Shown here: piece by piece, positions 5,530 to 57,008 of the stretch
Layout of the letters: each line of letters starts with the position of its first letter
Position numbering within the stretch: the first letter of the stretch is position 1
Assembly (NCBI GenBank): GCA_965372635.1
Contig: CBDVDA010000001.1
Location: forward strand, 2,860-66,859
Origin: an uncultured bacterium
Lineage (GTDB): Bacteria > Desulfobacterota > JADFVX01
Length of the DNA stretch: 64,000 bases
Reading direction: 5' to 3'
Made by a program: the position numbers and the translations under genes
The notes under the pieces: model-generated
Databases searched by the model: none
What the model saw: the letters and a program-made list of their open reading frames with translations, nothing else
What the model was told of the DNA's origin: nothing

Positions 5530-5670
5530 AGCTTCAAATAGCACACGTTAATTTGTTTAAAAACAGACGAAGCGCCAACAGATATTACAACGTTTGTTTT
5601 AAACTATCCAGCTTTTTGAAAAAAGGGAACTAAGAGAAGCAAAGAGAAAAGAGATTTTTGATATACAAAT

Positions 5671-36891: not shown

Positions 36892-37388
36892 TGCAGCCTA
36901 TAACAAGGCAGGGTATTTTGACTTTGATGGTATGTTCAGTTATTTTTTTTGGTTGCTCCGGAGGAGACCATAAATTCGGAAATGTTCATCGAGAGAGCAG
37001 TCTCTCTCCCGGAACGGATGGACTAAGAGAAAAGATAAATCCGCATCGTGGAAAACATTGCCTGAAATGTCATGTCACAGATGGAAATGAATTGTTTGAC
37101 CTGAGAAAAAAGAAAGGGCGTCAGGATTTTTCACCAGAAACTAACTTTCTCAAGGCAAACTTAAATAAATTATGCGCTTCCTGTCATGATAAGAAAAAAG
37201 GCGACCACCCGGTGGGTGCCGCTCCGGGAATAAACAGGCTCGATCTTCCACTGGATGAAAAAGGTAAAATAAACTGCGCTGCAACCTGTCACGATGTACA
37301 TATAAGCAATGAAAATATTTCAGGGGTAAAGAAAGGCTTGCTCCGGGCGCCCGCAGAAAAGTTATGTTTATCATGTCATGATGTTTGA
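36891..37388 (+). CDS. Small multiheme c-type cytochrome (3 CXXCH plus one CX3CH)
   Basis: CLKCH, CASCH, CAATCH, CLSCH. Signal peptide with a possible lipobox (FFGCS). Confidence 0.75.
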   Translation: MQPITRQGILTLMVCSVIFFGCSGGDHKFGNVHRESSLSPGTDGLREKINPHRGKHCLKCHVTDGNELFDLRKKKGRQDFSPETNFLKANLNKLCASCHDKKKGDHPVGAAPGINRLDLPLDEKGKINCAATCHDVHISNENISGVKKGLLRAPAEKLCLSCHDV

Positions 37389-37430
37389 TGTTTTATATTT
37401 ATTATGTTGGAACTATAAGGATGGTGTTTT

Positions 37431-38642: not shown

Positions 38643-38653
38643 CAGAGTAGATA

Positions 38654-40366: not shown

Positions 40367-40377
40367 AGATAATATCC

Positions 40378-41268
40378 ATGTTCTTTAACCGTACTCACAA
40401 AACTATCGACATCACATCCGATTCTGTACGTTTCGTGGAAATTGAAGGTTCCGGATCCATGCCGCGACTCATTCATGCCGCTACAGATGACCTTCCCGAC
40501 GGACTTGTTGTCCCCTCCTTTGCCAAATCAAATATTAGCGACCGGGAATTGCTGAAGGAAAAAATCTCCGCGCTTATTCCGGATAAAAAAAGAGGTGGAG
40601 ACATTGCGCTTTGCCTCCCTGACTCTCTCGTGAAAATCACGTCTCTCAGCTTTGAGGATTTGCCGGCCAAAAAAGACGAAGCGACAAAATTGATTCTCTG
40701 GCGCTTAAAAAAAACAGTGCCTCTCCCAACGGAACTCATAAAAATCGATTATGCAATCCTTTCGCAGGAAGAGGCCGGGGTACAAGTACTGACGGCTGCC
40801 GCCTCCAAAACAGTAATCAGGGAGTATGAAGATGTTTTGCGGGAGCTCGGTTTTCGACCCCGTCTGGTGGATATAGCCACCCTGAGCGCCCTTTTTCTTT
40901 ACAAAAAAACGATTGATGATAATTCACTCTTTATCAACTTTAAAGATAACATCATGAGCTTTGCCTTTCTGGTCGAAGGCAAAGTAGAATTTTTCCGGAG
41001 TAAAGAAATGGACTCTACGCCTGCTACTGTTGAGAAGGAATTTGCGTCTACTTATCGGTACTATCAAGCAAATTTTCGGGAACAGGGCGTCGATAATATT
41101 TGTGTCCATTTGGCCGGTGAAAATTCAGATGAGATTCTGAGCGCTTTAAAGAACAGTTTTGAAGGGGAAATTGCAGTTCTCCGGTTATTGGATTTTGCAT
41201 CCTGCCCTGCATCTTTAACAACCGATGAAAACTACTCGTCGGCAATCGGCCTTGCTCTCACGCTTTAA
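40378..41268 (+). CDS. PilM-like actin-fold assembly protein (GspL cytoplasmic-domain analogue)
   Basis: 296 aa. Sits in the pilM position ahead of single-TM PilN/PilO-like genes. Confidence 0.6.
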   Translation: MFFNRTHKTIDITSDSVRFVEIEGSGSMPRLIHAATDDLPDGLVVPSFAKSNISDRELLKEKISALIPDKKRGGDIALCLPDSLVKITSLSFEDLPAKKDEATKLILWRLKKTVPLPTELIKIDYAILSQEEAGVQVLTAAASKTVIREYEDVLRELGFRPRLVDIATLSALFLYKKTIDDNSLFINFKDNIMSFAFLVEGKVEFFRSKEMDSTPATVEKEFASTYRYYQANFREQGVDNICVHLAGENSDEILSALKNSFEGEIAVLRLLDFASCPASLTTDENYSSAIGLALTL

Positions 41269-41302
41269 TGTTCTACTTGAATTTTTAACATAAATATTTG
41301 GA

Positions 41303-41869
41303 ATGATTTCTTTTAACCTGGCCACATACGAATATACAGACAAGAGGGTAGCCCTCCTGATAGCGGTTTTTATTTCTTGCACCTTGGTTTTATTTGCCGG
41401 CTACAATTACATAGTTTACGAAAAATCAAAGGTGCAATCTGATCGTGCCCTGAAAGAGGTAAAAAAAATACAAAAAGATATCTCTCTTATTAAAAAACAA
41501 ATCGAGGAAAGCAAAAAAGGGAAAGACAGCGCCATCGGAGGACGTTATGAAGAGAAGCTTTCGGATAAGATACTCTGGCTAAATGAAATTATAGGAAGAA
41601 AAGCATTTTCCTGGAGTCAATTGTTGTATTCTCTGGAGAAGGCGTCCCCTCCTCGTATCGCAATTAAAACAATAAGACCAAATTTTTCCGGAAAAAAGAT
41701 TAGAATCATCGGCCAAGCGAAAGATGTGGCTGCTATTACAACCTTTGTAGATAGTCTTCAGGGGACTAAATATATTACGAAAAGTTTTCTCTTGAAAGAG
41801 AATATTGTCATTGTAGAAAAAAAATATGAAGCCGTTGATTTTGAAATTGAATGTGAAGGAAATTTTTGA
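41303..41869 (+). CDS. PilN-like bitopic inner-membrane protein
   Basis: N-terminal TM (LLIAVFISCTLVLFAGYNYIVY) followed by a coiled-coil. 188 aa. Confidence 0.55.
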   Translation: MISFNLATYEYTDKRVALLIAVFISCTLVLFAGYNYIVYEKSKVQSDRALKEVKKIQKDISLIKKQIEESKKGKDSAIGGRYEEKLSDKILWLNEIIGRKAFSWSQLLYSLEKASPPRIAIKTIRPNFSGKKIRIIGQAKDVAAITTFVDSLQGTKYITKSFLLKENIVIVEKKYEAVDFEIECEGNF

Positions 41870-42429
41870 GAATGTTACAGTCGGCACAAAAATATTTTAA
41901 TGAAAACAGGGGAGGATACAGCACAGCGCTATTACTTCTTCTTGCCAATATAATTTTTTATTTTGCCATTGTTGCACCCAACTCGACGAGAATAGAACAG
42001 TCAAAGCTGGAATATTTTAACCTCAGAAAATCGCACGCGAAAATAGAAAACGAACTTCTGGAAACGAAAGCGCGTATAATCAATATCGGCGCTATGGAAA
42101 CCGATATAAAGCAATTTCTGGGAGAACTGCCCACACCCTCGGCCATGACCGGACTCGGGCGGGCGATTCACAAGCTAGCGAAAAAAAACAGGTTGGAAAT
42201 GAGATCGGTCAAGTATTCACTCCCTCAAAAGAAGAAGGAGGACATTCTTGTCTATGCCGTTTCACTCCCTGTAACCGGCAGCTATAAACAGGTCAGGCGT
42301 TTCATCTACCACCTTGAGAAAATGCCTTATCTTATGACCATAGACAACCTCAATCTGTCTGCCAGTAAAGGCAATAAAGTTTCTTTGAACCTGAATATTT
42401 CCTTTTATTTCAAGGCGGCAAAAGGATGA
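41866..42429 (+). CDS. PilO/GspM-like bitopic inner-membrane protein
   Basis: TM (ALLLLLANIIFYFAIVAP), then coiled-coil and a ferredoxin-like C-terminus. Overlaps the previous stop. Confidence 0.55.
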   Translation: MRMLQSAQKYFNENRGGYSTALLLLLANIIFYFAIVAPNSTRIEQSKLEYFNLRKSHAKIENELLETKARIINIGAMETDIKQFLGELPTPSAMTGLGRAIHKLAKKNRLEMRSVKYSLPQKKKEDILVYAVSLPVTGSYKQVRRFIYHLEKMPYLMTIDNLNLSASKGNKVSLNLNISFYFKAAKG

Positions 42430-43214
42430 AAAAGGAACCGGTTATTCTTGCGGCACTTTTGATCATTTTAGTTGCAGTTTTTATGAGCAATATACAGGGC
42501 TCGAAAGAAAGACGGATTGGAGAACTTACATTCAAAACGGGCACGCAAACTTTGGAAAGCGAAAATATAAAAAAAAGTGAGGGCGAAGGTTCCCTCCGCA
42601 TCGATAAGAAAAATTTTCCACCCAAACGAGCGTCTTTTAAACTTGGGAATCAAAATATATTTCGACCGCTTCTTTATGTGACGCGGTCGGCGCCTGCCCC
42701 GGCAATTACACAATCCGTGCCCCCTATCATGGTATCAACCCCTAATCTCACAGTTTTTGTAGGAATAGACGCCGAGGTTCCCGTAACAAATGCACAGGGA
42801 ACTCTAAGTGTTGTTTTCAATCCCGACGGAATAGGCGCAGCCAGCGGCACATCATCTCCCCTCACTTTTTCCTGTCTTGTAACGGGTCGTACCGTGGCGA
42901 CTATATCCGATGGAAATAGTTCGGTTACTCTTAATCTGGACTGCGACCTCAGGCCTCCGGAAAAGAAACTGGCCAGCTTTATCTTTCTTGGTTTTTTGGA
43001 GTCGGAGAAGGAAAAGACGATCTTTTTGTCGAAGGATGGAGAGATATTTGTTGTCAAGAGAGGGGATACCCTCGTGAAAAAGAGTGCTACTATTCCGCAG
43101 GATTATGTGGTAAAAATAATAACCGATGAAAAAGTAGTCATTTCATCGTCTGACGGGTCTGATTTAATGGAAATCAGCCTTATTGAAAATGAGCCTCTTC
43201 TCAGGAACAAATAG
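42426..43214 (+). CDS. PilP/GspC-like periplasmic secretin-interacting protein
   Basis: N-terminal TM/signal. C-terminal beta-domain with a SFIFLGFL...IFVVKRGDTLV...YVVKII pattern reminiscent of PilP. Confidence 0.5.
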   Translation: MKKEPVILAALLIILVAVFMSNIQGSKERRIGELTFKTGTQTLESENIKKSEGEGSLRIDKKNFPPKRASFKLGNQNIFRPLLYVTRSAPAPAITQSVPPIMVSTPNLTVFVGIDAEVPVTNAQGTLSVVFNPDGIGAASGTSSPLTFSCLVTGRTVATISDGNSSVTLNLDCDLRPPEKKLASFIFLGFLESEKEKTIFLSKDGEIFVVKRGDTLVKKSATIPQDYVVKIITDEKVVISSSDGSDLMEISLIENEPLLRNK

Positions 43215-43230
43215 GAAGGAGATATTTCAG

Positions 43231-45573
43231 ATGTTTTTCAGAACAGATAGTGCAAAGAAAATAACACTATTTTTAATTATTGCTCTCACGTTGGCCGGGT
43301 GCTCTACGATGAAGATAAAGACGGCAATGAGAGATGGGGATACGCTGGCATTGCAGGAACGGTGGGACGAGGCTCTGGACAGATACCTGGAGGTTGCGGA
43401 ACAAATGCCGCAAGACAAAGAATACCGACTCAAGGTGGAAAAAGCCAAGTATGAAGCGTCCCTTATCCATATAAAAAAGGGGGAGGACCTGCTAGGCAAA
43501 AAAGATTATGACAGGGCGCTGCTGGAATTTCAGGTGGCAGCAATGCTTAATCCATCGCTCAGAAAGGCGAAAGATCTCGGAGCCAGGGCAAAAAAGCAAA
43601 AAGACGCTGATTATTATTACAGAACGGGACTCACCTTTATTGAATCGAACAAAAAAAATGAGGCGCGGGCGGCCTTTAAAAAGGTGCTCTTTCTCGACCC
43701 CAAACGTGATGATGCGGCAACGGCGCTTGAAAAACTGAAAAAAGAGAGAAAAACGGTTGTCGGCGGCTATGAATTAAACCTGAAAAGTGATAAGCCGATT
43801 ACGTTAAAATTCAAAAGTACGGCCATTACGGATGTTTTTGACATTATTTCCAAACTCTCGGGCATCAACTTTATTCTCGATGAGGGGGTCAAAAGGAAGA
43901 AAGCCACCCTCTATATCGAGGATGCAACCTTCGAACAGGCACTCGACCTTGTGCTGATGACGAATCGGCTTTTCAAGAAGGTAGTCAACGAAAATACAAT
44001 CATCATAATTCCTAATACCAAACAAAAACGGCAGCAGTATGAGGATCTTATCATCCATACTTTTTATCTTTCCAGCCTGGATGCAAAAAAAGCGGTCAAC
44101 CTCTTGAGGACATTGCTCCAGATCAAAAGCATCTATGTAAATGAAATGTTGAATACCATCGTTGTCAGGGATACCCCCGAAGTCATTGCCTTGGCGGAAA
44201 AAGTGCTGCAAGCGAATGATCAACCCGATGCGGAGATAATGCTGGAAGTTGAAATCCTCGAAGTGCAAAAGAGTGCTACGGAAAACCTGGGATTGGATTT
44301 GTCACCTGATACTATCACAGCAGGTCTGAGAGAGGGGGGCGTTAGTGGTAGTAAAGAACTCACATATAATACTCTGAAAAAATTTTCAAGGTCGGATATG
44401 CTGTTCAGTATTCCTGATTTTGTAATCAATCTCCAGAAAAGTCAAGGCAAGGCGAACCTTCTCGCCAATCCCAGGATCAGGGTTGCAAACAAGAAAAAGG
44501 CAAAGATACATGTTGGTGACAGGGTACCTACAATTACTTCGACGGTTAATAACAATGTTGTCACTGAAAATGTAACCTATGTGGATGTAGGTGTTAAGCT
44601 CAATATAGAACCGACCATTCACAACGATAATGATGTAACGCTGAAGATAAAAATGGAAATTAGTTCCGTAGGAGAAACCATTAAAACAAGTCAAAGCACG
44701 GTGTTTAGAATAGGAACGCGGAATGCGGAAACAGAACTCCGTTTGCATGATGGTGAGACACAGGTAATCGGGGGGTTGATAAGTGAAACAGAAAGGACTT
44801 CTACTGTTAAAGTACCCTTTTTTGGTGAAATCCCTGTCCTTGGAAGATTATTTTCATCTTCCAATGATACAAAAGAAAAAACAGAGATCGTTCTTACTAT
44901 AACACCTCACATCGTTAGAGAAAGAAAGATTGCCGATCCGGAATTTTTGAATATTTGGTCCGGCAAGGCCCAGGAACTCTCGTCAAAACCGCCCTTCTCC
45001 AGCTTCATCGAAGAAGAGGCGTTTCTTGACTTACCGCCTCCCGGGGCGGGTTTGATTGGTACAGAGCCACTTGGGACGATGGGCGCTATTGCCGTTCCTC
45101 ACAGTCCGGAAGAAGAGAATCAGGAAGCGGAGATCGCACCGGCACCTGTTGGCGACGGGGGGGGCGCATCGCTCATCATTGACGGCCCTGTTTCCGTTAA
45201 CAATAATGATGAATTTAATCTCGTTGTTTCTCTTAGCAGTTCCGAAAATGTAACCAGTGTACCCTTTTATCTCAGATACGATGCGGCGCTTATAAGCTTT
45301 ATTCGGGCCACCGAAGGGGATTTCTTAAAAAGAGACGGTAAATCGACGGCATTCATGTTTAATGATGATAAGAAAAGGGGCAGGGTTATTGTTGGCAGCT
45401 CAAGGCTGGGTGATCAGATCGGAATAAACGGCCAGGGAACGGTTATGACCGTAGCATTCAAGGCAATCAAGGCTGGGAGAGCAAAGTTTCACCTGGAGAA
45501 TTACAGGATTACCGGAACGGAGGGAAAAGTCATCCAGACCACGGTTACTGAAAAAAGCGTCCAAATTTTATGA
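43231..45573 (+). CDS. Outer-membrane secretin (GspD/PilQ family) fused to an N-terminal lipoprotein TPR module and carrying a C-terminal extra beta-domain
   Basis: Lipoprotein signal LTLAGCST. About 150 aa of TPR-like helices. Secretin N-domain (ITDVFDIISKLSGINFILDE), secretin signature (VPFFGEIPVLGRLF), then about 230 aa of beta-rich extension. Start set at MFFRTDSAKK (43231). Confidence 0.8.
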   Translation: MFFRTDSAKKITLFLIIALTLAGCSTMKIKTAMRDGDTLALQERWDEALDRYLEVAEQMPQDKEYRLKVEKAKYEASLIHIKKGEDLLGKKDYDRALLEFQVAAMLNPSLRKAKDLGARAKKQKDADYYYRTGLTFIESNKKNEARAAFKKVLFLDPKRDDAATALEKLKKERKTVVGGYELNLKSDKPITLKFKSTAITDVFDIISKLSGINFILDEGVKRKKATLYIEDATFEQALDLVLMTNRLFKKVVNENTIIIIPNTKQKRQQYEDLIIHTFYLSSLDAKKAVNLLRTLLQIKSIYVNEMLNTIVVRDTPEVIALAEKVLQANDQPDAEIMLEVEILEVQKSATENLGLDLSPDTITAGLREGGVSGSKELTYNTLKKFSRSDMLFSIPDFVINLQKSQGKANLLANPRIRVANKKKAKIHVGDRVPTITSTVNNNVVTENVTYVDVGVKLNIEPTIHNDNDVTLKIKMEISSVGETIKTSQSTVFRIGTRNAETELRLHDGETQVIGGLISETERTSTVKVPFFGEIPVLGRLFSSSNDTKEKTEIVLTITPHIVRERKIADPEFLNIWSGKAQELSSKPPFSSFIEEEAFLDLPPPGAGLIGTEPLGTMGAIAVPHSPEEENQEAEIAPAPVGDGGGASLIIDGPVSVNNNDEFNLVVSLSSSENVTSVPFYLRYDAALISFIRATEGDFLKRDGKSTAFMFNDDKKRGRVIVGSSRLGDQIGINGQGTVMTVAFKAIKAGRAKFHLENYRITGTEGKVIQTTVTEKSVQIL

Positions 45574-45587
45574 AGATAGGGCCAAAA

Positions 45588-46067
45588 ATGGTCTGTCGTA
45601 AGGGAAAAGGGGTCACGTTTATTGAGCTTTTGATCGTTCTTACAATACTTTCTCTTCTTGCCTCAGTTGTTTTACCCCTCGGCCAGATTAGCAAAAAAAG
45701 GGCGAAAGAATATGAGTTGAAGAGCCGCCTTAGAACCATCCGATCTGCCATCGATGCCTATCAGAAAGTCTATGATGAAAAGAGGATAATGAATGTAATC
45801 GGGCGCTCGGGATATCCTGAGACATTGCTGGAACTGGTTGAAGGGATGGAAGATGTAAGAGACCCGGAAGGGAAGATGATCTACTTTTTGAGACGGCTGC
45901 CGCGTGACCCGATGAATAACAATGAATTCCTTGCCCCTGAAGAGACATGGGAAACGAGGGCCTATGAAGGAGAACCCGATGATTTTTCTGGTGGCGACGA
46001 TGTTTTTGATATTCGTTCAATGAGTTATGATATTGCACTGGACGGTACTGAGTACAAGGAGTGGTAA
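45588..46067 (+). CDS. GspG-like pseudopilin (prepilin leader, Glu5, LPRDP motif)
   Basis: MVCRKGKG|VTFIELLIVLTILSLLASVV, later RLPRDPMNN. 160 aa. Confidence 0.7.
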   Translation: MVCRKGKGVTFIELLIVLTILSLLASVVLPLGQISKKRAKEYELKSRLRTIRSAIDAYQKVYDEKRIMNVIGRSGYPETLLELVEGMEDVRDPEGKMIYFLRRLPRDPMNNNEFLAPEETWETRAYEGEPDDFSGGDDVFDIRSMSYDIALDGTEYKEW

Positions 46068-46070
46068 CCG

Positions 46071-46466
46071 GTGGCGAAACTAAAAAAGAAGTCAGGGGAA
46101 GAGAAGGGGTTCACCCTCATAGAGCTACTGATCGTAATGAGCATCGTTGCCATCCTGTTGACAATTGCACAGCCCATGTACAGGGAATCAACGATCAAGG
46201 CGAGGGAAACCGTTTTAATGGAAAACCTCTTTACCCTACGGGATGTTATCGACCAGTTTTACGTCGATAAAAGCCGCTATCCTGACTCTCTAGAGGAACT
46301 GACCGACCTCGGTTATATAAGAACACTTCCCAAAGACCCCTTTACCCGCTCTTCCGAAAGCTGGCAATTAATCCCCCCCTCTGAAGGTTATGAAGGCGGT
46401 GTCTATGATGTACACAGCGGCAGTGATTTGGTTGCACTTAACGGCACCCCTTATAATGAGTGGTAA
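46071..46466 (+). CDS. gspG: Major pseudopilin GspG
   Basis: GTG start. KG|FTLIELLIVMSIVAILLTIAQPMY and TLPKDPF motif. 131 aa. Confidence 0.8.
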   Translation: MAKLKKKSGEEKGFTLIELLIVMSIVAILLTIAQPMYRESTIKARETVLMENLFTLRDVIDQFYVDKSRYPDSLEELTDLGYIRTLPKDPFTRSSESWQLIPPSEGYEGGVYDVHSGSDLVALNGTPYNEW

Positions 46467-46537
46467 AAAATCCCCGGCAGGCATTTTGTGTCGTGAAAAT
46501 AGAATAACTTTCCCTAATATTTTTAGTTGTTCAAGCA

Positions 46538-47026
46538 ATGGCTGGAGTGGTGAAAAGAGCAACGTCTGAAGAAGGTTTTACTTATATACATCTCCTCCTC
46601 ATGGTTGTAGTCATGGGAATATCCCTCTCCGCAATGGGCCGTTACTGGAGCTATCTCGATAAAAAGGACAAGGAGGCGGAATTGCTGTTCAGGGGAGACC
46701 AGTATATGAGGGCCATAGACTCCTATTTCAAACGCTCACACGGCAAAGTCAATATCTACCCGAAAAAATTGGAAGACCTGTTAAAAGACCCGAGGAGCCT
46801 TGCGCCGAGGCGACATCTTCGCAAGATTTATAAAGATCCCATGACGGGAGAGGCTGACTGGGTTCCCATTCTTGACCCGGCAAGCAAGCGGATAAAAGGC
46901 GTCAAAAGCCGCAGTGAAGAGATGCCGCTGAAAACAGACGGGTTTCCAAAAATCTATCAAGCCTTTAAAGATAAAGGGAGTTATAGTGACTGGGTCTTTG
47001 TCCACAAGCCCGGGATGAAATGGTAG
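46538..47026 (+). CDS. Minor pseudopilin-like protein that lacks Glu5
   Basis: EEG|FTYIHLLLMVVVMGISLSAMG. Prepilin-type N-terminus with His at +5. 162 aa. Confidence 0.55.
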   Translation: MAGVVKRATSEEGFTYIHLLLMVVVMGISLSAMGRYWSYLDKKDKEAELLFRGDQYMRAIDSYFKRSHGKVNIYPKKLEDLLKDPRSLAPRRHLRKIYKDPMTGEADWVPILDPASKRIKGVKSRSEEMPLKTDGFPKIYQAFKDKGSYSDWVFVHKPGMKW

Positions 47027-47065
47027 TATTTAGCCCTTCCAATTCCTTGAAAGCAACCATCCTTA

Positions 47066-48547
47066 TTGAAAATGATTCTAAAGAGTCTTATAACTAAGAT
47101 CATTGCTTCGACGACACTAATCCTTTTCATTGCCATAGGTATCTCCTGGTGGGTACACATGCGTATCTACGAAGAGCAGTTGATGGACGAGGTGAGAGAC
47201 AGGGTTGAGACGGTTCTCGATACAGCCGAGACGAGTATTTCCAAGTCGATGCGTATCGGTAAAACCGACGACACCCAAAATATACTCGAACTCGTCAATA
47301 GCCACATGAAGGAAAAGTCCGTAGTAAGAATCATTCACCCTGACGGCATCATCATTAAATCTACAAACCTGAAAGAAACGGGCAAGAGGATACCTAACAT
47401 CTTCATTAATGCCTATCGTGCGGGAAAGAAGGAGATCATTGTAGCGCACCTCGGAGAGTCGAGGGCGCTCAGCATGACTATGCCGATTAAAAATATACGC
47501 GAATGTCATCTCTGCCATGGTGAGAGCAGCAGCAGTATCGGGATTCTCAACGTCGAGCTTTCTCTTGAAGAGACCGATATCAAGCTCGGCGAGGCGAGGC
47601 GACGATCCAATATTTCGGCCATTTTCATAAGCCTGATCATTTCGCTCTTTATTTTTTTGCTGCTCTTTTGGATTGTGATCAAGCCTATTTCAAAGTTGAG
47701 TAAAAAAATGGCCTTTGCCGAAGAGGGAGACCTGACAGTTCGAAGCGGGCTGAAGAAAAGTGATGAAATTGGTCGGCTTGGGCGGAGTTTCGATTCAATG
47801 ATTGAAAAACTTCAGGATACCAGGACGGAACTGGAAAAATACCATTTCCAGCAGATGGAGCGAGCCGACAGACTCGCCTCGGTGGGAGAGTTGGCCTCGG
47901 GCATTGCCCATGAGATAAAAAACCCGCTGGCCGGGATAGCCGGCGCCGTCCAGATCCTGGCGCGCGACTTTAAGGGAGATGAGAAAAAGAGCTTTGTCGT
48001 AAAGGAGATTTTGCAGCAGATCGGCAGGCTGGACAAGTCCGTCAAGGACCTGCTAAACTATGCCAGTCCGTCAATGTCCGAATTTGTCAGGGGGGACGTG
48101 AATGCCATCATTGAGAAGGCGCTCTTCTTTGTTACCCAGCAGCCGAATGCCAAGGGAATAAAGTTTGTAAGAGAACTGGACACCGCCCTTCCCGGCGTCA
48201 GGCTGGATGACAAGCAGATTCAACAAGTTCTTTTGAACCTCTTTTTGAATGCCCTCAATGCCATGGAAAGAAAGGGCAGCCTCAGGATTTCAACCTCCGG
48301 GCAGGAAGATTCGTTCATCAATATCCGGGTGGAAGACAACGGAAAAGGTATTTCGAAGAAAAATATGCCCAAGCTTTTTATCCCATTTTATACGTCGAGG
48401 GAGGAAGGGACCGGGCTTGGTCTCTCTATCAGTAAGCGGATTGTGGAACAGCACGGCGGCAGCCTGAAAATAGAGAGCAAGGTCGGCAAAGGAACCGTCG
48501 TCGTCTTGTCACTGCCTATAGACGGGCCGGAAAAGGCACAGGATTAG
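47066..48547 (+). CDS. Sensor histidine kinase with a periplasmic c-type-heme (CXXCH) sensor domain
   Basis: TM1, a periplasmic domain of about 150 aa containing RECHLCHGESS, TM2, HAMP, HisKA (ELASGIAHEIKNPLAGI) and HATPase_c (GTGLGLSI). Confidence 0.85.
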   Translation: MKMILKSLITKIIASTTLILFIAIGISWWVHMRIYEEQLMDEVRDRVETVLDTAETSISKSMRIGKTDDTQNILELVNSHMKEKSVVRIIHPDGIIIKSTNLKETGKRIPNIFINAYRAGKKEIIVAHLGESRALSMTMPIKNIRECHLCHGESSSSIGILNVELSLEETDIKLGEARRRSNISAIFISLIISLFIFLLLFWIVIKPISKLSKKMAFAEEGDLTVRSGLKKSDEIGRLGRSFDSMIEKLQDTRTELEKYHFQQMERADRLASVGELASGIAHEIKNPLAGIAGAVQILARDFKGDEKKSFVVKEILQQIGRLDKSVKDLLNYASPSMSEFVRGDVNAIIEKALFFVTQQPNAKGIKFVRELDTALPGVRLDDKQIQQVLLNLFLNALNAMERKGSLRISTSGQEDSFINIRVEDNGKGISKKNMPKLFIPFYTSREEGTGLGLSISKRIVEQHGGSLKIESKVGKGTVVVLSLPIDGPEKAQD

Positions 48548-48551
48548 ACCG

Positions 48552-49928
48552 ATGAAAAAATTTAAGATACTTGTTGTTGATGATGAAGAATTGATCCGGT
48601 GGTCTCTGGAACAGAATCTGAAGGAAGAGGGGTACGCGACGCTCACTGCGGCAACGGGGGAAGAAGCGCTAAAGCTTGTCCGCGACGAGCTTCCCGATCT
48701 GGTTTTTCTCGATCTCCAACTCCCGGGGATCGGCGGCATGGAAGTCCTTCCGAAGATCAAGGAAATCAACAAAGATATTATTGTTATAATCATCACGGCC
48801 CTCGGTGTGGTCGAGATGGTTGTAAGGGCGATGAAGCTCGGAGCATACGACTATATCAACAAGCCCTTCAATCTCGATGAAGTCTCCATCATTGTAGAAA
48901 AGGCGATGGAAACGGTTAAGTTGAGGAAGGAGGTTGCCACCCTCCGGGCCGAACAGAGCAAGCAGTTCAACCCCGTGAACATCATCGGCATCGATCCGAG
49001 GATGAAGCAGGTCATGACTATGGTGGAAAAGGTGGCCAAGAGCGATTCCACCACCGTTCTCATTACGGGTGAGAGCGGCACGGGGAAAGAGTTGATCGCC
49101 AAGTCGATCCACAATCACAGCGCACGCGCCAGCGAACCTTTTATGGCGGTAAACTGTGCCGCACTGCCGGAAAACCTCCTGGAGAGTGAACTCCTGGGTC
49201 ATGAGCGAGGGGCCTTCACCGACGCGAAGAGCATGAAAAAAGGACTCTTCGAGATGGCCGACGGCGGGACGCTCTTCCTGGACGAAATCGGTGATATGCC
49301 GCTTGGTATGCAGGCAAAGATTTTGCGGGTTTTGGAAGATAAAATAATAAGGCGACTCGGGGGAGTGAAGGACATTCTCGTCGATGTGAGGATTATTTCG
49401 GCGACGAACAAGGACATCCTGGCTGCCATTGAAGAAGGCGCCTTCAGGAGCGACCTTTATTACCGTCTTCAGGTTATTCCTATAAAGCTGGCGCCTCTAA
49501 GAGAACGTCCGGGCGATATAATGCCGCTGGTGCTGCACTTCATTGAACAGTTTAACGCCGAATTCAACAAGGGGGTTAAAGGGGTTTCCAAGATGGCGGA
49601 GAGGTTTCTCGGGGACTATTCCTGGCCCGGCAACGTGAGAGAACTCAGAAACGTCATAGAGAGGGCGATTATCCTCGAAAACGAGGATACCCTTCTCGTT
49701 GAACACCTGCCTCTCGAAATTGTCGCCATGGGAAAGAAGCGTGTCCCCCAGAGCTCTCTCGAAATCACCCTTCCCGCCGGTGGAATCTCCATGGAGGCTG
49801 TTGAGAAGAATCTCATTCAGCAGGCCCTTTCCATCACAGGCGGGAACCAGTCCAAAGCCGCGAGAAAAGTGGGGCTCGGCATCGATGCCTTCAGGTACCG
49901 GATGAAAAAATTCGGTTTGCTCCAATAA
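48552..49928 (+). CDS. Sigma54-dependent response regulator (NtrC/PilR family: REC, AAA+ sigma54-activator, HTH)
   Basis: REC domain, GESGTGKE Walker A, GAFTDA, ESELFGHE-like motif and a C-terminal Fis-type HTH. Confidence 0.88.
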   Translation: MKKFKILVVDDEELIRWSLEQNLKEEGYATLTAATGEEALKLVRDELPDLVFLDLQLPGIGGMEVLPKIKEINKDIIVIIITALGVVEMVVRAMKLGAYDYINKPFNLDEVSIIVEKAMETVKLRKEVATLRAEQSKQFNPVNIIGIDPRMKQVMTMVEKVAKSDSTTVLITGESGTGKELIAKSIHNHSARASEPFMAVNCAALPENLLESELLGHERGAFTDAKSMKKGLFEMADGGTLFLDEIGDMPLGMQAKILRVLEDKIIRRLGGVKDILVDVRIISATNKDILAAIEEGAFRSDLYYRLQVIPIKLAPLRERPGDIMPLVLHFIEQFNAEFNKGVKGVSKMAERFLGDYSWPGNVRELRNVIERAIILENEDTLLVEHLPLEIVAMGKKRVPQSSLEITLPAGGISMEAVEKNLIQQALSITGGNQSKAARKVGLGIDAFRYRMKKFGLLQ

Positions 49929-50004
49929 CCTGTAACCCGATCTGACTCCACTTCATACTTTTCTCCACCAGGAAGCCTATTTTTTAGGCATTTACTTCTT
50001 CTGA

Positions 50005-50046
50005 CGACACATATTGCTCTTTTTGCGACACATATTGCTCTTTTTG
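50005..50046 (+). promoter_or_regulatory. Perfect 21-bp tandem direct repeat (CGACACATATTGCTCTTTTTG x2) upstream of the cytochrome genes. Candidate regulator binding site.
   Basis: Exact duplication read directly in the sequence, 115 nt upstream of the 50161 ATG and 77 nt downstream of the sigma54 regulator gene. A sigma70-like TTGCAA-N17-TATATT lies at 50057-50085. Confidence 0.45.
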
Positions 50047-50160
50047 CTTGAAGTTGTTGCAATTTATTTCGTAATATATATATTATGTGAGAGTCAGGGG
50101 TCTACTTTATCACCTATAGATAATTTCAATAATTCCAAATGAATGTGAGGAGTCATTATT

Positions 50161-50742
50161 ATGAGGAGTCGATTGATAGTATTGCTGGGTGCGTTACAGG
50201 TTTATTTGTTTGCAGGCACTCTCTATGCAGCGCCGGGCTACGTAGGCGCGGAGGGGTGCAAATGCCATAAGGCAGAAATTGCCGACTGGGAGCGAAGCGG
50301 TCACGGAAAGGCATTTAATCTGCTGAAACCGGGTAAAAAGAAATCGAAAAAGAAAAAGGCGGGGCTCGACCCCAAAAAGGATTATACGCGCGATGAAAAA
50401 TGTCTAAAATGCCATGTTACCGGCAAGGGCGAGGAGGGAGGGTTCAGGGATTTTGCCTCCACGCCCGGAATGGCCGGCGTGGGGTGCGAATCGTGCCACG
50501 GCCCCGGCAGTGAATACAGGTCTCTCCATAAGGAAAAAACGACGGCATTTTCCCGCGATGAAGCGAAGGCACTCGGCGAAACCTACGGCTCGCTCGACGC
50601 GGGGGTCTGTGAAACTTGCCACGTAAATAAGGACAACCCCTTTAAGCCGGAGATGAACAAGAAATATAAATTCGACCACGGGGCGGCGCTCAAAAAGAAT
50701 CGGGAGTTTCACGATTATTACGAACTGGAGGGGCAGCATTGA
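50161..50742 (+). CDS. Periplasmic tetraheme c-type cytochrome (NrfA/c554-superfamily-like first heme with W..SGH)
   Basis: Signal peptide. CKCHK, CLKCH, CESCH, CETCH. GCKCHKAEIADWERSGH motif. Confidence 0.8.
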   Translation: MRSRLIVLLGALQVYLFAGTLYAAPGYVGAEGCKCHKAEIADWERSGHGKAFNLLKPGKKKSKKKKAGLDPKKDYTRDEKCLKCHVTGKGEEGGFRDFASTPGMAGVGCESCHGPGSEYRSLHKEKTTAFSRDEAKALGETYGSLDAGVCETCHVNKDNPFKPEMNKKYKFDHGAALKKNREFHDYYELEGQH

Positions 50743-50805
50743 TGGCGCTTTTCCCGTCGGGCTGCCCAGTTAGACAGTTTCTCTTAGGCGCCCCGAAATA
50801 ATATA

Positions 50806-51396
50806 ATGACTCTTTCGGACATTGGCGCAGGAACCTTTGCCTTGAGTACGCTCTTATTATTTTTCGCCGGAGAGGGGTTGACGTCGGAAGCGAAATACGT
50901 TGGCGCCGAAGGATGCCAGTGCCATAGATCTGAAATCTCCGACTGGAAACGGAGTAAACACGCCAAGGCCTTCGATCTCCTCTTGCCCGGCAAGAGGAAG
51001 CTGGCGAAGAAGAGAGTTGGGCTGAAACCGGATAAGGATTACTCCCGCGACAGGAAGTGCATAAAATGCCATGTCGTTGGTTATCGGAAGGGAGGGTTTG
51101 TCAACATCAATTTCACACCCCAGTTTGCAGGGGTGGGGTGTGAGTCGTGTCACGGACCGGGAAGCAAGTACCGGGTCCTGCACGGGAAAAGGCCGCGCAC
51201 ATTTAAAAAGGCGGAAGTGAAGGCGCTCGGCCAGCACTACGGTTCCCTCGACGAGGCGGTTTGCAGGCGTTGCCACGAAAACGGGGAGAGCCCCTTTAAA
51301 CGCAGCATTGATGAAAAATACCGTTTCCATCTTAAGACGGAACTTTCGAAGACGAAGGCCTTTCATCGATACTATCCTTTGAAAGCGAAACATTAA
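50806..51396 (+). CDS. Periplasmic tetraheme c-type cytochrome, paralog of the 50161 gene
   Basis: CQCHR, CIKCH, CESCH, CRRCH. Collinear with the 50161 product at about 55% identity by eye. Confidence 0.8.
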   Translation: MTLSDIGAGTFALSTLLLFFAGEGLTSEAKYVGAEGCQCHRSEISDWKRSKHAKAFDLLLPGKRKLAKKRVGLKPDKDYSRDRKCIKCHVVGYRKGGFVNINFTPQFAGVGCESCHGPGSKYRVLHGKRPRTFKKAEVKALGQHYGSLDEAVCRRCHENGESPFKRSIDEKYRFHLKTELSKTKAFHRYYPLKAKH

Positions 51397-51453
51397 CAAT
51401 TTATTAACCCACCTTCCTGATAACGAGAAAGAAAGTTTGACAAATATTAGCCT

Positions 51454-53760
51454 ATGAAACTGAGCACAAAATTTATGAGCGCTGTCGGCCTCATTCTCCT
51501 CCTTCTCTCCATCGGCGATGTCTGGCTGAATATGAGAAAAGAGAGGGCCATCGTCACCAAAGACATCAAAAAGTGGACCTTCATCTTTGCGGAAAATGTG
51601 CGGGTTTCTCTGAACACCCTCATGCGGGAAGGGAAGATGGACATCCGTTTTGCCATGTTCGACGGCATGAAATCGGAGATCAAGGGGCTAGAAAACGTCC
51701 GGGTCATCCGGTCTCCCAAGGTGAATGAACTTTTCATGCTTGCCAACGAAAAGGACGTTATCCCCAGGGAAGAAAGCCGGATCGAGAGTATGGCGGAAGA
51801 GATTGCTGAACTGAAGGATGAGTTGCAGGACGCCCGTGACGCCGACGAGAGAAGCGACCTGAAGGAGGAGATTTCGGACCTTCTCCGCGACGTGGAAAAG
51901 AGCAAAAAAATTATCGAGGCGGCGAAGACGCCAAAGGAGATCGATAAAAGGGAACGCCCGCTGGACAACCTGGACAGGCAGGCACTCAAAACCGGCGAGA
52001 TTCTGTATGACATAGATTTTGAGGGAGACAAGGCCCGGGTTATCGTTCCCTACAAAATCCAGAAAAAGGGGTGCTCCGAGACGAGCGGCTGCCACCGCTA
52101 CGGAAAGGAAGGGGACGTGCTCGGCGGCATCAACATCGAGTTCTCCCTCACCGAAGTGAACGAAGAAATAATGAATAACAACATTACCGCTTCGCTCATC
52201 GGGGTTTTGAAGCTCGTCATTATTCTGGTGACGCTCCTCGTTATTCTCACCGTTTCCATTACGCGACCCGTAAAGAAGGTTGGCAAAATGGTCAAGGCGA
52301 TTGCCGCCGGGAAGGGGGATCTCACCCAGCGCGTCACTGTCACTTCCGAAGATGAAGTGGGAATGCTCAGCCGATGGTTCAATCTTTTCATGGACGGCTT
52401 GCAGGACATCATCAAGGATGTTTTTGCCACCAGCCAGGATATTTCTACCGTATCGAAAAAAGTAAATCAGGCGTCGGTAACGCTCAAAAATTCAAGCCAT
52501 GCACAGCGTGAAGCGATGGACGAGACTTCGTCTTCTATCCAGGAAATGAGTTCATCCATCCAGTCTATCGCCCATGAGACGGGAAACCAGTTAAAATCGA
52601 CGGAAGATGCCTCTGCCTCGGTACTGGAAATGCTGTCGTCCATTTCTGAAGTGGCCGAGCATGTGGACCAGCTTGTGAACTCGGCCGATAAAACCGCCTC
52701 ATCGGTCCACCAGATTGTTGCCTCCCTGCAACAGGTCGGCTCCCACGTGGACGACCTTTTTGGTGAGACGGCGGACGTCGTTTCCGCCGCCACCGAGATC
52801 GAAGCGGCGGTAAAAGAGGTGACCATCCACGCGAAGGAAAAGGCGCGTTTGGCCGAAAAGGTGCGGGAAAATGCCTCGTCCTTCGGCATGGCGGCCATCA
52901 AGCAGACGGCACGCGGCATGGAGAAGATCAAGAAAGAGGTAACGGCTACGGCGAGCGTCATCGACCGGCTGGAAGAGCGATCCGACGAAATCGGCCGGAT
53001 TATCAACGTCATCGAGGAGGTGGCGGAGACGACCAACCTCCTCTCGCTGAATGCCGCTATCATCGCCGCCCAGGCGGGAGAGCAGGGCAGGGGCTTTGCC
53101 GTCGTAGCCGACGAGGTGAAGGAGTTGGCGCGGAAAACGGCCTCTTCCACCAAAGAGATCACACGCCTCATCAGCCAGGTTCAGCTGGAAGTTGGGGATG
53201 CCAAGAAATCGATGGCAAATAGCTCTGCCAGTGTCGATGACGGGGTCAAGTTCTCCAAAGAGGCGAGCGGGGCTCTCTCCAAGATAATCGAAAGCGCCGA
53301 ATCATCGCTGGAGATGGCGAAGAAGGTGGAGGTGGCAACAGGTGAGCAGGCACGGGTCCTTGGCCATGTGATGGCGTCTATCCAGAAGATCAACGATATG
53401 GTAGAGGAGATCAAGCGCGCTACGGACGAACAGAAGACCGCCTCCGGTCATATACTGGAAGCTACGGAGGAAATGCGAGATTCCACACAGATGGTGCGCC
53501 GCTCCACGCAGGAGCAGTCGAGGGAGAGCGATTACATAACCAAAATCATTGCCGACGTTACGAACAAGATGCACTCCATTGCAAAGGCGACGTCGGAACA
53601 GCAGAGCGCCTCGGAAATCATCGTCAAGGCCGTCGAGACGATGCGCGACGAGATCGAAAAAAACGTAGAACTCTCCGTGCATCTGGAAGGCGTGGTGAAG
53701 GAACTGGACGAGCATCAGGAGCATCTCACCGACAAGGTAGGCTCTTTTAAGGTTGAATAA
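51454..53760 (+). CDS. Methyl-accepting chemotaxis protein with a periplasmic sensor domain homologous to the kinase sensor (variant heme motif GCSETSGCH)
   Basis: TM, a periplasmic domain of about 200 aa, TM2, HAMP and an MCP signalling domain ([26 protein letters not shown]). The sensor segment C...[19 protein letters not shown] aligns with the kinase segment CHLCHGESSSSIGILNVELSL. Confidence 0.85.
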
Positions 53761-53853
53761 CCCCGGTCACCGGTCGGGGATGGTACTGAAGGTGAACCAA
53801 TGAAACATGTTTTTTCAACTAGGGTGGAATACATCTTGAGGAGGAAAGAGAGA

Positions 53854-54759
53854 ATGAAGGGAGTAATGAGTGCGCTGTTGCTGGCGGCTGTTTTTCTGAT
53901 TATGCCGGCATCGGTGCAGGCAGAGGCTAACTATCTCGGCGAAAAGGAGTGTTATGCCTGCCACAAAGACATAAAAAAGGTTTATCTCGAAAACAGACAC
54001 GGGAAGGTATTCACCCGAAATCCAAAAAATGATTTACAGGCGCGGGGCTGCGAGGCGTGTCACGGCGCGGGCGGAGAACATAAGGCTGCGGCGGACCGCC
54101 TCGATAAGGGAGAAAAGGTTCCCCTCGAAATAGAAGGTTTTAAAAGAGGTGCTGAAAATGTCTCCGGCATGAACGGACGGTGTCTCACTTGCCACGAGAA
54201 GGGTGCGCGGACACACTGGCGGGGAAGCAGTCATGAGCGCGAGGAACTTGGTTGTGTTGATTGCCACACCATCCACGCAGAGGGGCGCATAGACGGTACA
54301 GAAGTCTGCCTCCGCTGCCACGTAGAACGCCGCGCGCAACTCCAGCGTTCATCTCATCTCCCATTACGGGAGGGAAAGGTGAAATGTTCGAGTTGCCATA
54401 ACCCCCACGGGAGCCTCGGTCCGTCACTCCTCAAGACCGCCTCTATAAACGAAAACTGCTACAGTTGCCACCAGGAAAAACGGGGGCCGCTGCTCTGGGA
54501 GCACGCCCCGGTACGGGAAAACTGCACCAACTGCCACAATCCCCACGGCTCCAACTACGAGGCCCTTCTCAAGATGAAGGTTCCCTATCTCTGTAAAAGC
54601 TGCCATATGGAGCAGTACCATCCAAGCTCTCTCTACGACGGTTCACAGGTCATCGCAGGCGGCGGAAATGACCGCCACACTATCGGCAGGGGATGTCTCA
54701 ATTGTCATCCCCAGGTCCACGGGTCGAACCACCCGTCGGGCGCCAGGATGCAGAGGTGA
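53854..54759 (+). CDS. Periplasmic decaheme c-type cytochrome of the MtrA/MtoA/PioA family
   Basis: Signal peptide. Ten CXXCH motifs, including CHNPHG-type motifs characteristic of the MtrA family. GGAGG RBS before the ATG at 53854. Confidence 0.85.
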   Translation: MKGVMSALLLAAVFLIMPASVQAEANYLGEKECYACHKDIKKVYLENRHGKVFTRNPKNDLQARGCEACHGAGGEHKAAADRLDKGEKVPLEIEGFKRGAENVSGMNGRCLTCHEKGARTHWRGSSHEREELGCVDCHTIHAEGRIDGTEVCLRCHVERRAQLQRSSHLPLREGKVKCSSCHNPHGSLGPSLLKTASINENCYSCHQEKRGPLLWEHAPVRENCTNCHNPHGSNYEALLKMKVPYLCKSCHMEQYHPSSLYDGSQVIAGGGNDRHTIGRGCLNCHPQVHGSNHPSGARMQR

Positions 54760-54800
54760 TCGCCATGAAAAGTATGAGAGAGAGTTTTGAGGAGGCGAAA

Positions 54801-57008
54801 ATGAACAGCAAATCATTACTTATGGTGGGATTGGTTCTGGCGATACTGATCGCTGCGCCGGGCGTTTCACTAGCGAAGGACGGCTATTCGGGCAGCGTCA
54901 CGGTAGGGGTCGAACGGACCGATCAGGACAAACCGTCGTTCAAGTCGGGGGAATACGACGGCGTCGATGACGACAGCACCCATTTTCTCGGCGCCGCCGA
55001 AGTGACCTACGAGAAAGAAAGCTACTATATGGATTTCGTAGCCGAAGAGGTGGGCCACGACAGCCGGTCACTCGGCGTTGAGAGTGGTCGCTATGGCACC
55101 TACCGCTTTTACATCGAATACGATCAGCTCCCCCACCTGGTAAACGACACAGGGGTGACCCCCTTTTTAGGGGCAGGGAGCGGCAACCTGACGCTGCCCG
55201 CTTTCTTCAACGCCACCGCGTTGACGACGAACATGAACCTGACTAACTTGAACCGCGTCGATCTGGAGACGGAGCGGAAGACCCTCACCGTCGGCTACGG
55301 GCGGGCATTGAGGGAAGGACTCGATTTTTCCATCCAGTTCAAGCGGGAAGAAAAAGAGGGGATCAAGGAAATCTCAGGCGTCGTTGGATACCACGGTGGG
55401 AATGGCCGCTCGGCCATCATGCCCGAACCGGTGGATTACAAAACGGATGAACTGAGAGTTTCCTTCGAGTATAACACGGAAAAGGGGAGTGCCAGGCTGG
55501 AGTATTTCCTATCCCGCTTCGAGAACAAGGTACCGACTCTTACTTGGGAGAATATTTATGGCACAGTCATTGGTGGTGGCCCGCCTTATCAGACGGGCGC
55601 CAATTCGCTCATTTCGCTGCCGCCGGACAATGAGCACCAGAAGCTGAGCCTGTCGGGCGCTTATAACCTGACCGATGTGACCCGTCTTTCCATGATCGCC
55701 GAACTCGGCAGGATGGAGCAGGATGAGGACCTCCTCCCCTACTCCACTAATTTCTATGCTACAGCGTTACCGAGGGCCAACGCTCAGGCGGAGATCGAAA
55801 CGACCCACTTCGGCCTGAACCTCACGTCCCGGCCCCGGCCCAAATTGAATGTGACGGCAAAATACCGCTATTACGAGACGAAGAACAAGACGCCGGTGGA
55901 CCTTTTCCAATATGTAAAAAATGACAACGCCGCGGCAGCAGGCCTTCAACCAGCCATTGCTGAAGAAACCGCTGTTTATAACAGTCCCTACGATTATAAA
56001 CAGCAGCAGTTGAAACTGGATGGAAACTACCGGCTGGCGAAGACGACGACGGTGAAACTCGGCGTGGAACGTGAGGAGATCGACCGAAGTCACCGTGAGG
56101 TGGAGAAGACGGAGGAAAATACCTATCGGGCGGGCGTCAAGGTGCGGGTGCCACAGGCGCTTACCCTTAACATAAACGCCATGCACGCAAGACGGGAGGC
56201 CGATGGTGGATATGATGTGTTGCGCGTTTATGAAGAGCACCACACATCGGGTTACCTTGCAGGCGTATCCAATCCGCTTGAGTATTTTGACAATCATCCC
56301 GACATGCGCAAATACGATATAGCCGACAGGCAGCGGGACCGTGTTGGGATCAACATGACCGTTTTTGCCGGGCCGGAGACGACCGTCGGCCTCTACCTGA
56401 ACCGGACGGAGGATGATTACGACCGTTCCCTCTTCGGGCTCCAGGAGAGCGACAACGACAGCTACACCGTCGATATGACACGGAGCCTGTCGCGCCACGC
56501 TTCTCTCTACGCCTTCTACACCAACGAGCAGTCGGAGATGCTACAGGCGAGCCGGGATTATGAGGGTGGTGCCCCCGGCACGAAGGCTGCCCAGGCATGG
56601 GATGCGACGCGCGACTGGACGGCTAACCATGACGATAAAAACGACACACTCGGTGTGGGCGCCACGCTGAGTTTCCTCAGTGATGACCTGACTGTGGACG
56701 CCAACTATAGCTATTCTTCGGCGGTGACGGATATCAGCTTTACGGCGGGAAGTGCGCTTCCGGTGCCCATCGATTTGCCGCAGCTTCAGACGAGGTTGAA
56801 CACGCTGGACGTGACGGGGCGCTACCGCTTCGACAAGCAGTTGACCCTCGGGGTCGGCTACAACTACGAGCGCTATCGGGCCGACAACTGGTCCACCGAC
56901 GGTTTCGATCCCGGAACGGCGACCATCCCGCTCGTGCTGACCATGACGGGAGGGGTGCCGGATTACGATGCACACCTCTTCAGGTTATTTGCGAGTTACG
57001 ATTTTTAG
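54801..57008 (+). CDS. Outer-membrane beta-barrel porin of the MtrB/MtoB/PioB family (partner of the decaheme cytochrome)
   Basis: Signal peptide MNSKSLLMVGLVLAILIAAPGVSLA. About 735 aa, Y/T/N/G-rich with alternating beta-strand pattern and a C-terminal ...YDF. Immediately downstream of the decaheme gene. Confidence 0.75.
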   Translation: MNSKSLLMVGLVLAILIAAPGVSLAKDGYSGSVTVGVERTDQDKPSFKSGEYDGVDDDSTHFLGAAEVTYEKESYYMDFVAEEVGHDSRSLGVESGRYGTYRFYIEYDQLPHLVNDTGVTPFLGAGSGNLTLPAFFNATALTTNMNLTNLNRVDLETERKTLTVGYGRALREGLDFSIQFKREEKEGIKEISGVVGYHGGNGRSAIMPEPVDYKTDELRVSFEYNTEKGSARLEYFLSRFENKVPTLTWENIYGTVIGGGPPYQTGANSLISLPPDNEHQKLSLSGAYNLTDVTRLSMIAELGRMEQDEDLLPYSTNFYATALPRANAQAEIETTHFGLNLTSRPRPKLNVTAKYRYYETKNKTPVDLFQYVKNDNAAAAGLQPAIAEETAVYNSPYDYKQQQLKLDGNYRLAKTTTVKLGVEREEIDRSHREVEKTEENTYRAGVKVRVPQALTLNINAMHARREADGGYDVLRVYEEHHTSGYLAGVSNPLEYFDNHPDMRKYDIADRQRDRVGINMTVFAGPETTVGLYLNRTEDDYDRSLFGLQESDNDSYTVDMTRSLSRHASLYAFYTNEQSEMLQASRDYEGGAPGTKAAQAWDATRDWTANHDDKNDTLGVGATLSFLSDDLTVDANYSYSSAVTDISFTAGSALPVPIDLPQLQTRLNTLDVTGRYRFDKQLTLGVGYNYERYRADNWSTDGFDPGTATIPLVLTMTGGVPDYDAHLFRLFASYDF

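Follow-up and report, generated by a model that had tools for sequence, protein, structure and literature searches.

A conserved CX5CH branch of haem-Cache-type sensors linked to porin-cytochrome genes, encoded beside cytochrome c554 homologs in an uncultured member of the Desulfobacterota

The chemoreceptors GSU0582 and GSU0935 of Geobacter sulfurreducens have haem c sensor domains that undergo a redox-linked His/Met spin switch with midpoint potentials of -156 and -251 mV and that bind nitric oxide (NO) and carbon monoxide (CO); in GSU0935 the distal haem ligand is Met60, which binds when the haem is reduced and so drives the spin switch (PMC8396549). These domains have been united with DUF3365/Tll0287 in a superfamily designated sCache_haem (Deshpande et al. 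2026 preprint, PMC12889525). The subject of this analysis is a stretch of 64,000 nucleotides (the window) from an uncultured bacterium of the Desulfobacterota (GTDB lineage JADFVX01; assembly GCA_965372635.1, contig CBDVDA010000001.1, positions 2,860 to 66,859 of the forward strand), in which the genes of a sensor histidine kinase (47066..48547, +) and a methyl-accepting chemotaxis protein (MCP; 51454..53760, +) flank those of two cytochrome c554 homologs. By sequence, the periplasmic domains of both proteins belong to the sCache_haem superfamily (GSU0582/GSU0935, Tll0287), the kinase domain as a divergent canonical (CXXCH) member and the chemoreceptor domain as a member of a clade set apart by an expanded motif and an inserted hairpin. 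The superfamily itself is known; what is new is this conserved, Pfam-invisible CX5CH/hairpin branch of haem-Cache sensors, which is tied to porin-cytochrome modules.

The kinase (493 residues) consists of a first transmembrane helix (TM1), a periplasmic sensor (approximately residues 31-180), a second transmembrane helix (TM2), HAMP, HisKA and HATPase_c, as delimited by its open reading frame and Pfam. The chemoreceptor (768 residues) has TM1, a periplasmic sensor, TM2, HAMP (PF00672, 49.6 bits) and MCPsignal (PF00015, 138.9 bits), the domains that define an MCP. The coordinates of both are right as open reading frames, the true starts may be a few codons downstream, and the exact products are absent from the protein collection. 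Both motif loops are situated between two hydrophobic helices, followed by HAMP, and are therefore periplasmic, which agrees with the extracytoplasmic location of sCache_haem domains. The periplasm is the compartment in which c-type haem is attached. The loop has approximately 150 residues in the kinase and 220 in the chemoreceptor, with the motif segment at its end in each case. Within the kinase domain (approximate limits 47156..47605, +, from the phmmer match to 3b42 and the family profile), the translation of 47492-47560 (+) is NIRECHLCHGESSSSIGILNVEL, which includes the canonical haem c motif C147-H-L-C150-H151 (CHLCH; 47504..47518, +) aligned with CQSCH of GSU0935. Within the chemoreceptor domain (51517..52182, +), which has the sCache fold of the CX5CH clade, the peptide encoded at 52063-52149 (+) carries the expanded motif C207-SETSG-C213-H214 (CX5CH; 52072..52095, +), which occupies the CXXCH site of its relatives. 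Both peptides are present as an earlier sequence-only reading of this DNA had described them, at homologous positions, and the interpretation given in that reading is upheld for the most part, with the corrections noted below. Each domain also has a candidate distal haem ligand of the GSU0935 type: Met62 of the kinase (SKSMRIGK; 47249..47251, +) aligns with a near-invariant Met of the family, and Met57 of the chemoreceptor (LNTLMREGK; 51622..51624, +) aligns with the same family Met and with Met60 of GSU0935.

Sequence comparison indicates that the kinase and chemoreceptor domains are distant members of one family. The motifs CHLCH and CSETSGCH are collinear, just ahead of TM2, and a BLASTP alignment of the N-terminal regions, TM2 and HAMP included, has E=5e-12. 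For the periplasmic parts alone, stripped of membrane helices and HAMP, the C-terminal halves scored 47 where shuffled sequences gave 23 +/- 4.4 (6 of 5000 as high), and the N-terminal halves, independently and collinearly with the C-terminal segment, scored 49 where shuffled sequences gave 27 +/- 5 (10 of 5000 as high). A single profile built from 99 CXXCH relatives matched both domains full length, the kinase scoring 38 bits and the chemoreceptor 127, values somewhat inflated by the presence of TM1 in the profile. With two collinear segments and a common profile, the similarity of the periplasmic domains therefore extends beyond the motif, in both halves. The rival explanation, a chance pattern of Cys and His in two unrelated periplasmic loops, can point to the weakness of the direct pairwise similarity, because the two shallow alignments, compared with hhalign, share only a weak N-terminal match (E=0.08); but it would have to explain the two independent collinear segments, the full-length match of both domains to one family profile, and the profile-profile and structural links to solved haem sensors that are described below. 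It is regarded as refuted by the common profile and the profile links, and its probability is considered to be vanishingly small. The proposal that the two are paralogous sensor modules holds insofar as they are homologous, but they are not recent paralogues: in a rough neighbor-joining tree (no bootstrap, insertion columns excluded), a long branch places the kinase with canonical sequences, whereas a separate derived clade contains the chemoreceptor.

Membership of the kinase domain in the superfamily is indicated by a phmmer match to PDB 3b42 (GSU0935) with E=0.006, in which the CXXCH motifs are aligned; a word-indexed homolog search with this domain returned one relative. The chemoreceptor domain, queried alone, had no Pfam or PDB sequence match, and its word-indexed search returned only four relatives, all with C-X5-C-H/R. 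An exhaustive HMMER search with this small chemoreceptor-sensor family over 1.84 billion representatives found 173 relatives. Full-length matches numbered 24, with CX5CH in 22 and CX8CH in two; approximately 100 others matched in two stretches without some 65 residues in the middle and had a canonical CXXCH at the aligned site (consensus nCLsCH..keGdvlGAis), and one relative had CX3CH. A profile of 33 canonical relatives matched 3b47 (GSU0582, E=3.3e-7) and 3b42 (GSU0935, E=4.5e-7) over the whole domain, and among these 33 sequences PF21563 was matched by 12 and PF11845 by ten. Alignment of the clade to the canonical relatives by hhalign (probability 99.9, E=7e-34) contained one gap of 60 columns and placed CSETSGCH opposite NCLSCH. 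A Foldseek search with the AlphaFold2 (AF2) model of the chemoreceptor domain put GSU0935 at the top of the 350,542 chains compared (E=4e-3, probability 0.97), and the model has the single-Cache fold with an extra motif-bearing element before the last strand that characterizes sCache_haem. Neither domain of the window matches the curated models significantly, and therefore membership of sCache_haem rests on transitive profile links. The earlier assignment to the GSU0582/GSU0935 haem c type is borne out by the match of the kinase to 3b42, by the profile links of the chemoreceptor, and by the Foldseek ranking.

The clade to which the chemoreceptor domain belongs was assembled from the representatives and from 20 loci found in a scan of 185,579 species genomes, yielding at least 48 distinct sensor regions with 28-94% identity (median 41%). 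The motif is CX5CH in 45 of the 48, CX8CH in two, and CX5CR in one truncated copy. Only 18 positions are conserved at 97% or more, and they include C207, G212, C213, H214, M57 and M62; the truncated copy is the sole exception among the 48 to conservation of H214, and Met57 is present in 47 of 47. The Cys, Cys-His, Met tetrad is thus judged, from this alignment, to be under strong selection in the clade. In the neighbor-joining tree, the sequences with CX5CH or CX8CH group together as a single clade that arises from within the CXXCH sequences. As read from this tree and the alignments, the clade is monophyletic and distinguished by CX5CH (twice CX8CH) together with an insertion of approximately 65 residues. 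In the chemoreceptor, the insertion (51745..51942, +; ~66 residues, located by the hhalign gap, the AF2 model and the translation) is predicted to be a charged antiparallel helical hairpin, its helices being domain residues 67-105 and 109-137 with predicted local distance difference test (pLDDT) scores of ~90-97. Foldseek matches of the model to hairpins of adaptor proteins had low probability and were not counted as evidence. Sensors of this clade are joined to outputs of the MCP, kinase, hybrid kinase and HAMP-GAF-GGDEF (diguanylate cyclase) types. Three short members of 283-288 residues (P0003, P0010, and 9905-10771 of locus L020) consist of TM1, sensor and TM2 only, without an output domain, and the metagenome-assembled genome TamC13-38 contains three clade copies. 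The truncated copy (8848-9537 of locus L014, identical to P0004) ends right after the motif CSSTSGCR and is probably frameshifted; intact c554, MtrA-like and MtrB genes are present alongside it.

The 20 clade loci, all from metagenome-assembled genomes, are distributed among Thermodesulfobacteriota, Nitrospirae, Gallionellaceae, Sedimenticola, Chromatiales and other Gammaproteobacteria. A c554 homolog is found within 10 kb of the clade sensor in 14 of them, and in 11 it immediately precedes the sensor gene, in the same orientation and separated from it by -4 to 116 bp (the window has 57 bp). An MtrB/PioB porin is encoded within 10 kb in 12 of the 20 loci, and an MtrA-like decahaem cytochrome (10 CXXCH) beside the sensor in ten. 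The control consisted of 80 metagenome loci of canonical relatives, none of which had c554, MtrB or MtrA-like genes (0/80, including 0/45 loci of at least 10 kb; Fisher p=9e-13), the control being limited to one canonical CXXCH subclade and taken from a different collection. The fit with adjacent secretion and cytochrome genes that the sequence-only reading perceived has to be divided between the two proteins: the chemoreceptor-type sensor is linked across phyla to c554/MtrAB-like genes, and the kinase is syntenic with pseudopilin genes, not cytochrome genes.

Covalent attachment of haem to the CX5CH motif is inferred and is considered fairly probable. The Ccm system of E. coli reportedly attaches haem to CXnCH with n=2-6 (work of Allen et al. 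from 2009), giving heterogeneous products above n=4. Maturation systems have also been described in a review as accepting cysteines that are spaced by more than two residues (PMC7096707). The rival explanation is that the chemoreceptor domain is haem-free, its CX5C forming a disulfide (structural or a thiol redox switch), and that it senses by protein contact, perhaps of its hairpin with c554, or by a small ligand in the Cache pocket. Several observations argue in this direction, or against the assignment of these domains to haem sensing more generally. CXXCH is 99-99.4% conserved in sCache_haem (PMC12889525), and the CX5CH clade therefore lacks, clade-wide, a defining feature of the family. 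The searchable literature contained no mention of CX5CH and no experiment in which a natural CX5CH carried haem. Long spacings such as CX15CH depend on a dedicated lyase (PMC7096707), and neither strict nor relaxed patterns detected an open reading frame for a WWD-type haem lyase anywhere in the 64 kb of the window or up to 10 kb from the sensor at the 20 clade loci. None of five scanned clade members matched PF11845 or PF21563, and on the kinase, PF21563 (Mcp40H-20_sensor) matched residues 68-168 with 23.2 bits (E=9e-5), under the cutoff of 27. The AF2 model of the kinase domain, made from two sequences, has a pLDDT of 39, and the motif region is the lowest-confidence part of the chemoreceptor model (pLDDT ~59). 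A sister group of the clade (P0033/P0050) has a shorter insertion, the motifs CTGNSGCY and CTAVTPDCY with Tyr for His, and Ile for the helix Met; its members may be haem-less or differently ligated derivatives, and since they keep CX5-6C without the His and Met, a cysteine pair can persist without haem ligands, for example as a disulfide. A haem-free domain, however, makes it hard to explain why His214 (47/48) and Met57 (47/47) are among so few conserved positions at such low overall identity, or why the adjacency of Cys and His survives a spacing of eight, and the reported flexibility of maturation systems also speaks against it. The haem-free explanation is therefore regarded as unlikely, and a haem-bearing domain is preferred.

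The explanation that best accommodates the homology, fold, motif position, conservation and gene linkage is that these domains are redox-linked haem sensors and that the chemoreceptor clade serves a porin-cytochrome electron conduit as its dedicated input module, which is held to be moderately probable. By analogy with the Geobacter sensors, the Cys...Cys-His segment, located between the final two beta-strands, would carry a c-type haem, with ligation by the His of the motif and, in the reduced state, also by the Met on the N-terminal helix, a continuation of TM1. The Met would be released by oxidation or by a diatomic ligand (NO, CO), allowing the helix to move, and this movement would be relayed via TM2 and HAMP to the output domain, as has been proposed for GSU0582 and GSU0935. 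The chemoreceptor, presumably co-transcribed with a tetrahaem c554 homolog beside MtrA/MtrB-like genes, would have its haem in equilibrium with the periplasmic c554 pool, and the operonic c554 would be its obvious redox partner. The sensor would thereby indicate how charged the periplasmic part of the conduit is, so that the flux of electrons through the conduit would govern taxis in this bacterium and, elsewhere among bacteria, cyclic di-GMP (c-di-GMP) or two-component signalling. A docking or reach function may fall to the hairpin. Because the domains are periplasmic, they would read the redox or gas state of the periplasm and not the extracellular state directly, so the response to extracellular redox state that was originally envisaged has to be given up in that form.

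Cytochrome c554 has a five-coordinate, NO-reactive haem, and a homolog of it is the co-transcribed partner of the chemoreceptor. This is one of the considerations that lend some credence to another rival explanation, according to which both domains bind haem c but respond to NO, or to some other diatomic gas taking the place of the distal ligand, and not to the conduit's redox state. A signalling sCache_haem protein releases NO slowly, much as H-NOX and NosP do (PMC12889525), and both GSU0582 and GSU0935 bind NO and CO (PMC8396549). The signalling sCache_haem proteins studied so far are NO-sensor-like, which counts against a redox sensor: redox may not be the signal. On the other side, the genes to which the clade is strictly linked encode an outer-membrane porin-decahaem module and not nitrogen-oxide enzymes, and the distal Met is conserved as it is in the redox-switching Geobacter sensors. 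A gas signal is accordingly judged improbable, and redox sensing of the conduit remains the favored interpretation of the chemoreceptor.

The kinase has a different genomic association. Its single detectable ortholog (P0005, in locus L101; 74% identity) keeps the motif as CYLCH, plus the Met, and is preceded by the same three pseudopilin genes as in the window (66-79% identity), so that the kinase motif, like the expanded motif of the chemoreceptor (kept in 47 of 48), is maintained in what orthologs there are. This ortholog (1482-2651 of L101) has an in-frame stop straight after the candidate ligand Met (KSM*IGK), and it is either a pseudogene or affected by a sequencing error. The presumed partner of the kinase is an NtrC-type sigma54-dependent response regulator (48552..49928, +; Pfam Response_reg, Sigma54_activat, HTH_8), which starts 4 bp past the kinase stop codon; all domains of such a pair were seen by Pfam, with HisKA/HATPase next to receiver-AAA+-HTH_8. 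PilS/PilR-type pairs of a kinase and a sigma54 regulator adjoin pilin genes, and it is more likely that the kinase and its NtrC-type partner control the pseudopilin or secretion operon. For control of the cytochrome gene at 50161 by the sigma54 regulator, as previously suggested, no promoter was identified: a scan for -24/-12 elements gave 15 matches against 22 expected by chance, with no good match in the spacer upstream of 50161 and no convincing element preceding that gene. The 232-bp spacer between the regulator and this gene (49929-50160) contains an exact 21-bp tandem repeat, GACACATATTGCTCTTTTTGC in two copies (50006..50047, +; read from the sequence), which may be a binding site for the regulator.

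The island that contains these genes extends from approximately 33.8 to 57.0 kb of the window. It begins with an NHL propeller and three multihaem cytochromes, followed by a type II secretion/pilus-like system with pseudopilins, and continues in order with the kinase, the sigma54-type regulator, the two c554 homologs, the chemoreceptor, the MtrA-like decahaem cytochrome and the MtrB/PioB porin. The G+C fraction is 0.42-0.47 in the secretion/pilus-like and pseudopilin genes (36000-48000) versus ~0.47-0.61 in most of the remaining window, and this block may have been acquired. The first tetrahaem c554 homolog, c554a (50161..50742, +), matched cytochrome c554 (PDB 1bvb, E=3e-31) and Pfam Cytochrome_C554 and was aligned to the family; the second, c554b (50806..51396, +; Pfam and alignment), is directly upstream of the chemoreceptor. 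The first haem motif is contracted in both, to CKCH in c554a (50257-50268) and CQCH in c554b (50914-50925), so that the locus unites CX1CH, CXXCH and CX5CH sites. The contraction was noted also for the loci L001, L002, L005, L006 and L014; literature searches for a contracted CXCH motif returned nothing. The proteobacterial c554 orthologs in the alignment have CXXCH at that first site, as does c554 of N. europaea. The decahaem cytochrome (53800..54759, +; 319 residues, 10 CXXCH; Pfam Paired_CXXCH_1 and related families) is of the periplasmic MtrA/MtoA/PioA type, and the outer-membrane porin adjoining it (54693..57008, +) is of the MtrB/PioB type (PF11854 MtrB_PioB, 469.6 bits), the arrangement by which MtrAB/MtoAB/PioAB modules are recognized. 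As listed, the porin open reading frame shares 67 bp (54693-54759) with the end of the decahaem gene, and its Pfam match begins at residue 79; the real start is probably further downstream. No che genes were found within the 64-kb window, and a GAF-GGDEF protein (3607-5544), examined as a possible third haem sensor, proved not to be one.

How bacteria sense, and steer to, insoluble electron donors and acceptors is poorly understood, and a sensor module linked to an electron conduit is a concrete, testable candidate, one whose outputs are interchangeable among chemotaxis, c-di-GMP and two-component signalling. The clade is missed by Pfam-based annotation and by surveys that count only CXXCH, CX3CH and CX4CH (e.g., PMC10734462). 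A more specific and more speculative proposal, which is thought somewhat more apt to be wrong than right, is that CX5CH/CX8CH is a natural, functional haem motif matured without a dedicated lyase and that the hairpin docks sensors of the clade onto the c554-type carrier of MtrAB/MtoAB-like conduits. The sensor would in that case be a built-in "conduit gauge" through which extracellular electron transfer is followed directly by taxis, c-di-GMP and gene expression, and which is common to putative iron-oxidizing and metal-reducing lineages and invisible to current scans for domains and haem motifs. A new natural spacing would then join the short list of c-type haem motifs, apparently without a dedicated lyase, which would bear on the substrate range of maturation systems.

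Several known systems resemble parts of this locus. The kinase and its NtrC-type regulator, which come last in a pseudopilin operon with a synteny kept in the L101 locus, resemble PilS/PilR; a sigma54 promoter was not identified here, and the kinase differs in having a periplasmic haem-type sensor, not a multi-pass membrane input. KsTH of Kuenenia stuttgartiensis, a c554-like tetrahaem protein, shares a contracted first haem site with c554a and c554b (CKCH/CQCH), that is, with the neighbor genes and not with the sensor. A review that cites KsTH gives its contracted motif as CKCH (PMC7096707). The setting of the contracted sites here is a porin-cytochrome locus of a non-anammox bacterium. Like the chemoreceptor clade, MccA (CX15CH) and NrfA (CXXCK) depart naturally from CXXCH at a single haem site and, as compared here, keep the Cys-His adjacency of the motif; in contrast to MccA with CcsA1 and NrfA with NrfEFG, which have dedicated lyases, the clade has a spacing of only five or eight, its protein is a sensor and not an enzyme, and a lyase gene was not found in the window or at distances up to 10 kb in any of the 20 loci. 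The sCache_haem superfamily (PF11845, PMC12889525) shares with these domains the single-Cache fold with an extra motif-bearing element between the last strands, outputs that may be chemoreceptor, kinase, GGDEF or stand-alone, and enrichment in Nitrospirota, Desulfobacterota and related phyla, whereas the insertion and the conserved gene neighborhood of the CX5CH clade are absent from its description in the preprint. The closest counterparts are GSU0582 and GSU0935 (3B47, 3B42), in which, as here, the periplasmic domain stands between two transmembrane helices and is followed by HAMP and an output domain, with a Cys...Cys-His segment just ahead of the last strand and an N-terminal-helix Met aligned with the distal ligand Met60. 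Compared with these Geobacter chemoreceptors, the kinase version in the window falls under the Pfam thresholds, and the chemoreceptor version has CX5CH and a hairpin of approximately 65 residues and belongs to a clade that is genetically tied to c554/MtrAB-like genes.

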